A DNA stretch of 64,000 bases, taken from assembly GCA_900317295.1 (NCBI GenBank), contig ONGB01000003.1, positions 12,245-76,244 of the forward strand, in the 5' to 3' direction. Made by a program: the position numbers and the translations under genes. Positions 29,447-53,820 of this stretch are shown here, in pieces (position 1 is the first letter of the stretch; each line of letters opens with the position of its first letter). Source of the DNA: an uncultured Erysipelotrichaceae bacterium (GTDB taxonomy: Bacteria; Bacillota_I; Bacilli_A; RFN20; CAG-826). The notes beneath the pieces are model-generated. The model had not been told where the DNA came from, did no database searches, and saw nothing but the letters and a program-made list of their open reading frames with translations.

Positions 29447-29535
29447 CCGTTTTGAAGGAAACGGCACACACTTCTATGGTCGCACGGTGCCAACCGAGGC
29501 GACCCATAGTCCGAAATTAGGAGGTGCACACAGCT
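29447..29535 (+). promoter_or_regulatory. structured rpsF 5' leader (possible S6:S18 autoregulatory element)
   Basis: Nested helices (CCATAG...CTATGG enclosing CCGTTT..AAACGG) and a second CCATAG copy before the AGGAGG RBS; identity with the described S6:S18 leader not verified. Confidence 0.3.
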
Positions 29536-29823
29536 ATGGAAAAGTACGAACTCATGTACATCATCTCCGCTGACCTGGACGAAGCGTCCCGCAAAGCTGA
29601 GATCGAGAAACTCCACAAGATCCTCACCGACAACAAAGCGGTCATCCGCGATGTCAAGGAATGGGGGGTCCGCGAGTTCGCGAGCCCGATTCACAAGCTC
29701 ACCAAAGGCTACTATGTCGTTCTTAAATTGGACGGCGAACACGCCGGGTTGCTCGAGTTTGAACGTCTTGCTCGCCTTGACAACCAAGTTATCCGTTTCC
29801 TGTTAACCGTTGATAAAGACTAA
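29536..29823 (+). CDS. rpsF: 30S ribosomal protein S6
   Basis: ATG 12 nt after AGGAGG; MEKYELMYIISADLDE... typical S6. Confidence 0.9.
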   Translation: MEKYELMYIISADLDEASRKAEIEKLHKILTDNKAVIRDVKEWGVREFASPIHKLTKGYYVVLKLDGEHAGLLEFERLARLDNQVIRFLLTVDKD

Positions 29824-29843
29824 GCTCTTAGGAGGATAACAAA

Positions 29844-30302
29844 ATGCTTAACAATGTCGTTCTAGTCGGTCGCCTTACCCGCGATCCCGAAATCCGTCAA
29901 ACCACCAGCGGCAACAGCGTGGCTTCCTTCACCCTCGCTTCCGATGATAGCCGCCGTGGCCCCAACAACGAAAAACAGACGGTGTTCATCAACGTCTCGA
30001 TCTTCGGTAAACAGACCGATGTCGTCAGCCGCTTCACGCGCAAAGGTTCCTTGGTGGGCATCACGGGTCGTTTGATCCAGCGCAAATACACCAACCGCGC
30101 CGGCGTGGAAGTCACCGCCACCGAAATCGTTGCCGAACGCATTGAACTCATGGACCCGAAAGGCGCCGGCGTCTCTGACGCGGAAGCCGGATATCAATCC
30201 GACCGTCCCGCCCCCGCCGCCCCCGCTTCCCAGGTTCGCCCCGAACCCGAAGAGAACGGAGGAAACCTCGATCCTCTCCTTGAGGACGACCTCCCCTTCT
30301 AA
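29844..30302 (+). CDS. ssb: single-stranded DNA-binding protein
   Basis: 152 aa; OB-fold N-terminus [16 protein letters not shown], Gly/Pro-rich linker and acidic C-tail ...DDLPF. Confidence 0.92.
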
Positions 30303-30325
30303 GTTCAGAAAGGATTAAAAAAAAT

Positions 30326-30550
30326 ATGGCTTTCCGTAAAATGCGGTCCCGCCGCAAGGCCTGCTACTTCAAGAAAAACCACATCAAATACGTCGATTAC
30401 AAAGACGTGGAGCTTCTCTCCCGCTTCATCGGCGCCGATGGGAAAATCACCCCGCGTTCCATCACCGGAACCTCGGCGAAGTATCAGCGTCAGCTTGCCG
30501 TCGCGATCAAGAACGCTCGCTTCATGGGCCTGCTCCCCGACGTCAAATAA
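30326..30550 (+). CDS. rpsR: 30S ribosomal protein S18
   Basis: 74 aa; [25 protein letters not shown]... canonical S18. Confidence 0.92.
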
Positions 30551-30639
30551 GTGCGAACCCGCTGTGTTAGGACGAGACCGATTCCCCTCGTTAATACGAA
30601 GACCGTTCTCCCCGAAGCACGAAGCAACAAACCAATAAG

Positions 30640-30662
30640 ACCGTCCATCGCTGGGCGGTTTT
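30640..30662 (+). terminator. intrinsic terminator of rpsF operon (ACCGTCC-loop-GGGCGGT + T-run); member of repeated terminator family
   Basis: 7-bp stem with one T.G wobble, 6-nt loop, TTTT; preceded by GAAGCAACAAACCAATAAG which recurs at 32030. Confidence 0.75.
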
Positions 30663-30699
30663 CTTATGTTTCTCCTCTTGCTAGTAGTATAATTGGCTT

Positions 30700-30815
30700 G
30701 GGAATGATGTCTCCCATCTAGAAATAGAGAACCGCAATGAAGTGCTGATGACGTCTATGACTTGTTTTGTCATAGAAATCAGCGCTTTTGTTTCTATGGC
30801 AGATGGGAGGTATCG
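30700..30815 (+). promoter_or_regulatory. structured 5' leader of the cation:proton antiporter gene with alternative hairpins and SD sequestration (riboswitch/attenuator-like)
   Basis: TATAAT at 30688-93; TCTCCCATCT (30710-19) pairs with AGATGGGAGG (30800-09), which contains the SD 7 nt before the ATG; inside, GTCATAGA can pair either with upstream TCTATGAC or downstream TTTCTATGGC (mutually exclusive hairpins). Confidence 0.45.
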
Positions 30816-32006
30816 ATGAATATATTTCTGTCTTTGTTTATTATTTTTGGTGGTGGGATCCTCGGTGGGTTTTTATTTGAGAAGATCAAACTCCCCAAAC
30901 TGGTGTGGTATATCATTCTCGGGATTCTTATTGGACCATCTTTGTTCAATATCGTTGATGATACGTTGCTGTCGGTTTCGTCTCATCTAAGGCAAATCGC
31001 TTTGGTCATCATATTGACCAGGTCAGGCCTATCTTTGAACATTAAGAACCTAAAGAAAATAGGGCGACCTGCGATATTGATGTGCTTTTTACCCGCTTGT
31101 TTTGAAATTGCGGGCATCACGATATTTGGCCCAATGCTCCTCGGGATATCCTATTTCGAAGCCTTGCTTCTTGGCTCGGTCTTGGCGGCCGTTTCGCCGG
31201 CGGTAGTGGTTCCGAGAATGATTCGCCTAATGGAAGAAGGATATGGAAAAGAACACTGCGTGCCCGAACTTGTGATGGCGGGGGCATCTTGTGACGACAT
31301 CTTTGTAATCGTCCTTTTCTATTCGTTCAAGAATCTGGTCGCAACGTCCGCCTTTGACGCTTGGAGCGTCGGGCAAATCCCCATTTCGATCGTCTCCGGT
31401 GTCATTTTGGGCATCGGAGTAGGCTTCTTGATGGTTTTAGCCATTCGATACATGAAACTAAATAGAATCGTCCATGTCATTTTGATGCTCGGTCTCTCCT
31501 TCGGGATGCTCGCCCTCGAGAATGCCTTGAAACCGTATTTCAGCGTTTCGTCTCTATTAGCCATCATCGTCATGGCATTTGTGGTGGGCGTCTTTAAAAA
31601 AGAGGAAGCGAAGGAGATGCAGAAATCCTATAACGGCTTATGGCAAGGTTTTGAAATCCTATTGTTCGCTCTCGTTGGCATTGCGGTCGATGTTCGTTAC
31701 GCTTTTTCAAAAGAAGGGGCAATCATCGTTGGGCTGGTTTTCATTGCGTTGGTATTTAGAAGTTTAGGCGTGTTTTGCAGCATAATTGCAACGAAATTCA
31801 CTTGGAAAGAAAAACTATATATCGTCATTTCTTATCTCCCTAAGGCGACCGTTCAAGCATCGATTGGGGCGATTGCTTTGTCCGAAGGCCTTGCTTGCGG
31901 CACGTTGGTGCTGACCGCTGCGGTGGTGGCAATATTGATAACCGCTCCATTGGGTGCGATATTGATGGATAACCTGAAAAACAAATTGCTTAAGAGGGAG
32001 GCGTAG
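30816..32006 (+). CDS. cation:proton antiporter (Na+/H+ exchanger-fold, CPA family)
   Basis: Start at MNIFLSLF after GGGAGG; about 396 aa, 11-13 TM helices, conserved TM-crossover discontinuous helices with Asp residues, typical of PF00999-type exchangers. Confidence 0.7.
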   Translation: MNIFLSLFIIFGGGILGGFLFEKIKLPKLVWYIILGILIGPSLFNIVDDTLLSVSSHLRQIALVIILTRSGLSLNIKNLKKIGRPAILMCFLPACFEIAGITIFGPMLLGISYFEALLLGSVLAAVSPAVVVPRMIRLMEEGYGKEHCVPELVMAGASCDDIFVIVLFYSFKNLVATSAFDAWSVGQIPISIVSGVILGIGVGFLMVLAIRYMKLNRIVHVILMLGLSFGMLALENALKPYFSVSSLLAIIVMAFVVGVFKKEEAKEMQKSYNGLWQGFEILLFALVGIAVDVRYAFSKEGAIIVGLVFIALVFRSLGVFCSIIATKFTWKEKLYIVISYLPKATVQASIGAIALSEGLACGTLVLTAAVVAILITAPLGAILMDNLKNKLLKREA

Positions 32007-32049
32007 TTCCTTCGACTCTTTTATAGGCAAGAAGCAACAAATCAACAGG

Positions 32050-32073
32050 ACCGTCCCTCGTGGGCGGTTTTTT
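32050..32073 (+). terminator. intrinsic terminator of antiporter gene (ACCGTCC-CTCGT-GGGCGGT + T6), repeat-family member
   Basis: Same stem as 30640 and 32326; preceded by AAGAAGCAACAAATCAACAGG (near-identical to the 30620 flank). Confidence 0.75.
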
Positions 32074-32325
32074 CATGCTCGTCCGTCCCTCGTCCCGGAT
32101 CTACTTAGAACCATCGACGTCGAAGCGACCTTATATATTTCATATATAACTCATTCTAACTAACCCCGGTCGGTCCACGTCACACGATCGTCCTTGTGGC
32201 TGGCAAATTGTTAGGCGTCGTCCGAATCGAGTCCCACGGGTCGAATATGGGCTTCGTCGGAGAGAGCGGAGTTTGTTCTTTTTCGGAGAATTGGCGTCGT
32301 CGTCGAACACCCGCTACAAAAACAA

Positions 32326-32350
32326 ACCGTCCCTCGTGGGCGGTTTTCTT
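32326..32350. terminator. bidirectional terminator (ACCGTCC-CTCGT-GGGCGGT, A-run upstream and T-run downstream) abutting the stop of the minus-strand ABC-2 permease
   Basis: Identical stem-loop to 32050; AAAAACAAA 5' and TTTT 3'. Confidence 0.7.
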
Positions 32351-53410: not shown

Positions 53411-53820
53411 TGATAACGTGGGGACGTACTGGTTTTGATTCGGAAGGTCGGTCATCGACTGCAGTGGTCTGGTAGACCCTAAGACCGAAAAACAATAACT
53501 GACAACTCTGTCAAACCCTGGATGGTGCGTAACAACGCCGTCCTCGCTCGCGCCTAATTAGAGCACCCCTCGATGGGTTCCCGCCAAGCGGGACGAGCAC
53601 GTCCGCCCCTCATTTCTCGCCTATTGAGGGAGCGGGCGCAACACCAAGGCGATAAGCGCGTAGCGTTGGCTAGCGCGTAACGTCGAAAACCTTACCAGCC
53701 ATGGGTCATGCGCTTTGGGGCGTATCTTCAACCATGACCCGAGACTTGAAACGCCATAAACTGTAGGCGTCGATGGTTAGTCTTCCGAAGACCGGAGTTC
53801 GACTCTCCGCGTCTCCACCA
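53411..53820 (+). ncRNA. ssrA: transfer-messenger RNA (tmRNA)
   Basis: 5' GGGGACG pairs with 3' CGUCUCCACCA (acceptor stem with G3.U), T-arm GGAGUUCGACUCUCC, ends in CCA; starts and ends like B. subtilis tmRNA; tag ORF GAC(53492)...GCC-TAA(53546-48) preceded by AAUAACU as in B. subtilis; followed by terminator 53834-53866. Confidence 0.93.

Follow-up and report, generated by a model that had tools for sequence, protein, structure and literature searches.

Which signal controls the antiporter gene that stands alone downstream of a small ribosomal protein operon in the 64,000-nt stretch of DNA analysed here (the window), and by what means does its leader respond? The gene (30816..32006, on the + strand, as are all features of the leader located below) encodes an NhaP-type cation:proton antiporter homolog of 396 aa that matches PF00999 (Na_H_Exchanger, E 1.9e-44). 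No NCBIfam equivalog scored above its cut-off for this protein, and near homologs carry the JGI name ‘NhaP-type Na+/H+ or K+/H+ antiporter’. Since the genes beyond the antiporter run on the opposite strand, while rpsF, ssb and rpsR (29524-30550) and a terminator between rpsR and the leader (30637-30662) lie upstream, the leader heads a single-gene unit. The first-pass annotation saw in this leader a switch for a cation, built mainly around a helix that hides the Shine-Dalgarno (SD) sequence. The motifs TCTCCCATCT (30710) and AGATGGGAGG (30801) are each present in a single copy within the window. All three copies of the 8-mer from which alternative hairpins had been proposed are where the annotation placed them, namely TCTATGAC at 30754, its reverse complement GTCATAGA at 30769 and TTTCTATG at 30791. 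The SD, GGGAGG, occupies 30805-30810, leaving a spacer of 5 nt before the ATG at 30816. The leader folds with a predicted energy of -51.4 kcal/mol (z = -7.2), which none of 200 dinucleotide shuffles matches.

A comparison with Rfam by cmscan, the check that the first-pass annotation had suggested, settles the class of the leader. It is a member of RF01734, the crcB motif or fluoride riboswitch aptamer, and matches the full model (positions 1-64 of 64) at 30691..30764, with 37.5 bits against a gathering score of 34 (3.5 bits above it) and an E-value of 8.9e-7 over the 64-kb window. A short P2 and an optional hairpin that counts as an insertion keep the score modest. The match ends 52 nt 5' of the antiporter start. 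RF01734 and tmRNA are the only two families with gathering-level matches in the 64-kb window; the tmRNA gene (RF00023, 105 bits) is located at 53420-53820 (+). In a local search of 30500-30900 with permissive filters and E<=10, RF01734 was recovered with an E-value of 5.6e-9, and neither nhaA-I, DUF1646 and yybP-ykoY nor any other riboswitch family gave a match; the three named families likewise had no gathering-level match across the 64-kb window. Every defining feature of a fluoride riboswitch that can be tested in silico is present in the leader. In our judgement it is very probably a fluoride riboswitch (RF01734) that would turn on the NhaP-type antiporter gene as cytoplasmic fluoride rises; we infer both the response to the ligand and the ON polarity from family membership and anatomy. 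As such, the leader would be one more ordinary case of an already known class, and routine Rfam annotation would label it.

The same association recurs in relatives of the gene. The 80 best-matching antiporter loci (L005-L084) were collected by searching a profile of diverse homologs against contigs from one genome per species. Their proteins are 45-95% identical to that of the window and come mostly from Bacillota, including Mollicutes/Erysipelotrichaceae-like MAGs, Lachnospiraceae, Oscillospiraceae, Ruminococcus and others, the closest being L005 from an uncultured Mollicutes MAG (95% identity). A gathering-level RF01734 match lies directly 5' of the antiporter in 60 of these 80 loci (16, 14, 14 and 16 per batch of 20). 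Conservation of the leader upstream of orthologous antiporters, the absence of which the first-pass annotation would have taken as a refutation of its reading, is thus found, and what is conserved is the fluoride aptamer. This also bears on the proposal that the leader is a cation- or pH-responsive riboswitch (DUF1646, nhaA-I, yybP-ykoY or a new class) acting mainly by SD sequestration. The gene is indeed that of a cation:proton antiporter, the three named classes regulate cation transporters according to PMC9646797, and the minimum-free-energy fold does hide the SD. However, given the lack of any such match in 30500-30900 and a conserved core in 60 relatives that is the fluoride aptamer, we consider this proposal extremely improbable. 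Sensing of Na+ (DUF1646), Li+ (nhaA-I) or Mn2+ (yybP-ykoY), as the annotation had envisaged, gives way to the fluoride class.

The elements of the aptamer are present, conserved and covarying. The P1 hairpin (30700..30715) pairs GGGA (30700-30703) with UCCC (30712-30715) across an 8-nt loop, AUGAUGUC, as seen in both the Rfam alignment and the pair check, and the loop holds the pseudoknot 5' strand GAUGUC (30706-30711). P1 is paired in 31/31 relatives, two of which show a double change from G-C to A-U. Between P1 and the AACC linker sits the optional hairpin UCUA-GAAA-UAGA (30717..30728), an 11-nt insertion in the Rfam alignment, which folds in all 31 relatives with widely differing stem sequences. 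An extra hairpin is described as ‘present in 31% of crcB RNAs’ in PMC3023696. P2 (30734..30745) joins GCA (30734-30736) to UGC (30743-30745) around a 6-nt loop; it has 3 bp versus 4 bp in the consensus, a shortness that costs score. Its pairs 1-2 are kept in 31/31 relatives, and pairs 3-4 vary between A-U, U-A, C-G and G-C. The conserved core GCUGAUGAC (30744-30752) is followed by the pseudoknot 3' strand GACGUC (30750-30755), the whole element covering 30744..30755. The pseudoknot 30706-30711 / 30750-30755 has six pairs in the window, one of them G-U, and each of the five pairs counted in relatives is formed in 29-31 of 31 leaders; pair 3 (U-G / A-U / G-U) and pair 5 (U-A / C-G) covary. These counts come from an anchored parse of 31 leaders, as the MAFFT alignment shifts the clade with an 8-nt P1 loop by one column. 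The core nucleotides (AUG in the P1 loop, AACCGC and GCUGAUGAC) match the consensus in the cmscan alignment and are invariant or nearly so in the MAFFT alignment of relatives, and the conserved GAUGAC / AACC residues are present in the leader. In B. cereus, a long-range reverse-Hoogsteen A-U ‘linchpin’ pair, A40-U48, is needed for the fluoride-locked state (PMC8752731).

Around the aptamer, several further features deserve description. A putative -10 box, TATAAT, can be read at 30688..30693 with a weak -35, and would set the start of transcription near G30700, where P1 begins. A consensus promoter scan made no promoter call upstream of the leader, where a good -35 is absent. The segment 30648-30815 is almost unchanged among the close relatives L001-L004. 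A mini-ORF of five codons (ATG ATG TCT CCC ATC TAG, 30705-30722) falls on the P1 loop and the P1 3' strand; it probably exists only because the aptamer loop has a conserved AUGA, and a leader peptide seems less likely. A 46-nt module with a terminator (GCAnGAAGCAACAAAnCAAnAnGACCGTCCnTCGnGGGCGGTTTT) occupies 30617-30662, just 3' of rpsR, and a second copy, 78% identical, occupies 32027-32072, 20 nt past the antiporter stop codon. The two copies are direct repeats 1410 bp apart that enclose the promoter-riboswitch-antiporter cassette; a 22-nt core of the module is found a third time at 32326-32347, 276 bp further downstream. The repeated module may mean that the cassette was inserted or duplicated; a dispersed intergenic repeat would be another explanation. 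By eye, 32090-32135 looks like the intergenic DNA 5' of the leader in L001 and L003.

How the aptamer would be coupled to expression is suggested by what follows it. An intrinsic terminator spans 30742..30793, with a base stem formed by 30742-30749 / 30778-30785, a top stem formed by UCUAUGAC (30754-30761) and GUCAUAGA (30769-30776), a U tract, UUUUGUUU, at 30786-30793 and a local fold of -23.8 kcal/mol. A simple terminator scan gave no call at 30742-30793, where an internal loop breaks the stem. The 5' strand of the terminator takes in the 3' half of P2, the conserved core and also the 3' strand of the pseudoknot; because of this last overlap, the terminator and the folded aptamer are mutually exclusive. 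The alternative hairpins of the first-pass annotation can be understood in these terms: copies 1 and 2 of the 8-mer do pair, and copy 3 does offer an alternative partner, but it had escaped notice that the pairing of copies 1 and 2 is the top of a terminator ending in UUUUGUUU. In 59/59 parsed leaders, a hairpin on GCUGAUGAC and the pseudoknot strand precedes a U tract, L076 and L081 having been left out for their short U tracts. Terminators often overlap the crcB motif, an arrangement that predicts ON switches in which the ligand raises expression (PMC2864571) and that has been studied in detail in B. cereus crcB (PMC8752731). By analogy, without fluoride 30742-30761 would pair with 30769-30785, so that the terminator and UUUUGUUU would halt transcription before the gene. 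With fluoride, the pseudoknotted aptamer (~30700-30755) would be locked and the terminator 5' strand withheld, allowing RNA polymerase to read through. In the members of the class that have been studied, fluoride is bound as a Mg2+-fluoride cluster. We read the primary mechanism as transcription termination/antitermination, not SD sequestration. The broader view of the first-pass annotation, a riboswitch with mutually exclusive structures that controls the antiporter, thereby appears sound, the RF01734 match supplying the class and terminator versus aptamer the predicted pair of structures.

The borderline Rfam score and the short P2 could also be taken to mean that the aptamer is a degenerate remnant and that nothing more than a terminator or attenuator is left between the antiporter and the rpsF-ssb-rpsR operon, and the flanking repeated terminator modules hint at rearrangement. 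Against this, the core nucleotides and the pseudoknot are all intact, and the leader is almost unchanged in L001-L005 (antiporter 95% identical) while the flanking intergenic DNA diverges. Twelve distinct leader substitutions separate these close relatives; nine fall in modelled helices, of which eight, among them all six in the terminator, retain pairing. The substitutions are all transitions and may count as mild evidence. Moreover, the same clade-specific architecture is found in L005, L006, L007 and L009, where RF01734 scores 34.8-44.7 bits. A remnant thus seems very unlikely.

The helix on which the first-pass annotation laid most weight is real and even longer than claimed, with 15 bp instead of 10. 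The SD region with its flanks (30801..30815) pairs with 30705-30719, a segment that takes in the 5' strand of the pseudoknot, the 3' strand of P1 and the first bases of the optional hairpin. The 15 uninterrupted pairs (12 Watson-Crick and three G-U), reaching up to the base that precedes the AUG, are based on sequence reading and a length computation, with 13 of them listed in the pair check. In mononucleotide shuffles of the 119-nt leader, a helix of the 10-bp type with G-U allowed arises in 622/2000 cases, versus 9/2000 for a helix of at least 15 bp. The duplex of the window (-16.9 kcal/mol) is the strongest among 31 relatives. The full-length helix is shared only by the window and its closest relative, L005, with an interrupted version in L006 and L009; in L021, L033 and L043, the complementarity extends into their own SD flanks. 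Family-wide, there is no cognate specificity between anti-SD and SD: the mean is -9.1 kcal/mol for cognate versus -8.8 kcal/mol for non-cognate combinations, and 809/5000 permutations reach the cognate mean. The complementarity is generic because the P1 3' strand of the subclass (UCUCCC) inherently complements SDs of the GGAG type. As a conserved, co-evolving element of the family, the anti-SD helix was thus rejected by the duplex test. In L015 (L015:2392-2500), the SD region GAAGGGAAUGAUUGU is a near-duplicate of the P1 5' strand and loop GGAAAUGAUGUU, and may mimic the P1 5' strand in competing for the P1 3' strand.

The third 8-mer has a more specific partner. As UUUCUAUG (30791..30798), it straddles the end of the U tract and the bases just after it, and forms eight pairs with CAUAGAAA (30771-30778) in the terminator 3' strand. 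Because of its location at the end of or after the U tract, this post-terminator repeat is confined to read-through RNA. Distant relatives with other terminator sequences have similar repeats, for example UUUCUGCG after the terminator 3' strand CGCAGAAA. We compared the terminator 3' strand with the 42 nt past the U tract in 59 leaders, in cognate and non-cognate combinations. Pairing of -9 kcal/mol or better was found in 17/59 cognate cases versus 9.7% of non-cognate combinations, and the cognate mean was reached by 0/10000 permutations. By this comparison, the post-terminator repeat is evidently a real and recurrent accessory of the antiporter-associated subclass, and not a universal one (~30% of relatives). 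The terminator 3' strand is the conserved partner of the third 8-mer. A pairing of the third 8-mer with the 3' half of the optional hairpin (AUAGAG / UUUCUAU), which appears in the minimum-free-energy fold, was also considered and set aside, being unconserved in distant leaders by eye. Two loci, L049 (L049:2311-2500) and L084 (L084:2132-2300), display an aptamer followed by two tandem hairpins, each with a U tract, of which the second re-uses UUUCUGCG; these are the same repeated pieces as in the platform of the window, in another arrangement.

Repeat and helix together raise the question of a second layer of control, in which antitermination would be combined with fluoride-dependent translation through the 15-bp helix. 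A full-length RNA with an unfolded aptamer would have its SD concealed by the helix, paired to the P1 3' strand and pseudoknot strand. In the ON state, the repeat at 30791-30798 would tie up the freed terminator 3' strand as a decoy, keeping the aptamer folded and the SD open in the read-through mRNA. In favor of such a scheme, the helix covers the entire SD and spacer and, through shared strands, excludes the folded aptamer. The predicted chance of finding the SD unpaired goes from 0.02 when the RNA folds freely to 0.40 with the aptamer locked, in folding predictions that leave out the pseudoknot and folding kinetics, and the hairpin of the repeat with the terminator 3' strand forms in the fold with the aptamer held folded. 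The cognate specificity of the repeat in 17 of the 59 relatives and the extended complementarity in L021, L033 and L043 are consistent with it, and repeat strength correlates with anti-SD strength over the 59 leaders (Spearman 0.36, p 0.005), a figure uncorrected for shared ancestry. An SD-sequestering model is also published for another crcB RNA in PMC3023696. On the other hand, every P1 strand with UCUCC can pair with every GGAG SD, only the window and L005 have the long helix, and the repeat is missing in ~70% of relatives. The evidence is suggestive only, and we regard the combined scheme as a possibility with the odds against it. It extends the explanation by fluoride antitermination without contradicting it. 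Somewhat more doubtful still is the generalization that a subset of antiporter fluoride riboswitches, of which the window would be the strongest case, has a three-part platform: a terminator in competition with the pseudoknot, a repeat past the U tract to capture the terminator 3' strand in read-through RNA, and an SD which, when the aptamer is unfolded, pairs with the P1 3'/pseudoknot strand. If true, the leader would have two exclusive global folds, and the co-transcriptional decision on fluoride would be carried into, or re-checked at, translation.

What follows most directly is that a switch-like leader without explanation receives a standard annotation and that its expected ligand is corrected from a cation to fluoride. 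Fluoride riboswitches control a wide regulon besides the exporters CrcB/Fluc and CLC-F. The antiporter would accordingly be a part of the fluoride-stress response, probably serving to keep pH or ions in balance during HF influx and not to detoxify Na+/Li+. With the riboswitch upstream of 60 of the 80 loci, the NhaP-like homologs make up a coherent branch of the fluoride regulon that is biochemically uncharacterised. For a long time CLC-F proteins were wrongly annotated as chloride channels, and the true substrate or role of the NhaP-like subfamily in fluoride stress may likewise differ from ‘Na+/H+ antiport’. If borne out, the joint presence of terminator, repeat and anti-SD helix could offer a compact example from nature of coupled transcriptional and translational control.

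Among the closest known systems is one in Clostridioides difficile, also a member of Bacillota, where a fluoride riboswitch precedes the CD0656-0657 operon of a CLC-type channel and an NhaP-type antiporter (PMC11477304). As in the window, the riboswitch acts on an NhaP-type Na+/H+ or K+/H+ antiporter; unlike in C. difficile, the antiporter of the window is alone in its unit, with no CLC-F gene between riboswitch and antiporter. Na+/H+ antiporters are the next most common gene class of fluoride riboswitches after exporters, as stated in PMC11139923. In anatomy, the leader resembles the crcB-type ON switch of B. cereus: in both, P1 closes an 8-nt loop that pairs with the 3' tail as a pseudoknot, P2 is present, the core has AACCGC and GCUGAUGAC, and a terminator overlaps the 3' part of the aptamer (PMC2864571, PMC8752731). 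It differs from the B. cereus switch in its optional hairpin, its 3-bp P2, its gene, which is an antiporter and not crcB, and the addition of the post-terminator repeat and the long anti-SD helix; from the Rfam consensus, in which P1 is GGcG/CgCC, it differs by having GGGA/UCCC. The Li+ nhaA-I, Na+ DUF1646 and Mn2+ yybP-ykoY riboswitches are, like the leader as we interpret it, ion-sensing ON switches 5' of cation transporter genes, but there is no match in sequence or structure, and their ligands are cations whereas that of the leader would be an anion. In the crcB literature compared here, we found no description of a terminator and an extensive SD-sequestering helix in one fluoride riboswitch. 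Each kind of platform has been modelled separately: PMC3023696 gives alternate structures for crcB RNAs with a terminator in Roseburia intestinalis and with SD sequestration in Acidothermus cellulolyticus. Both kinds are also present in the window, where they are combined in a single leader.
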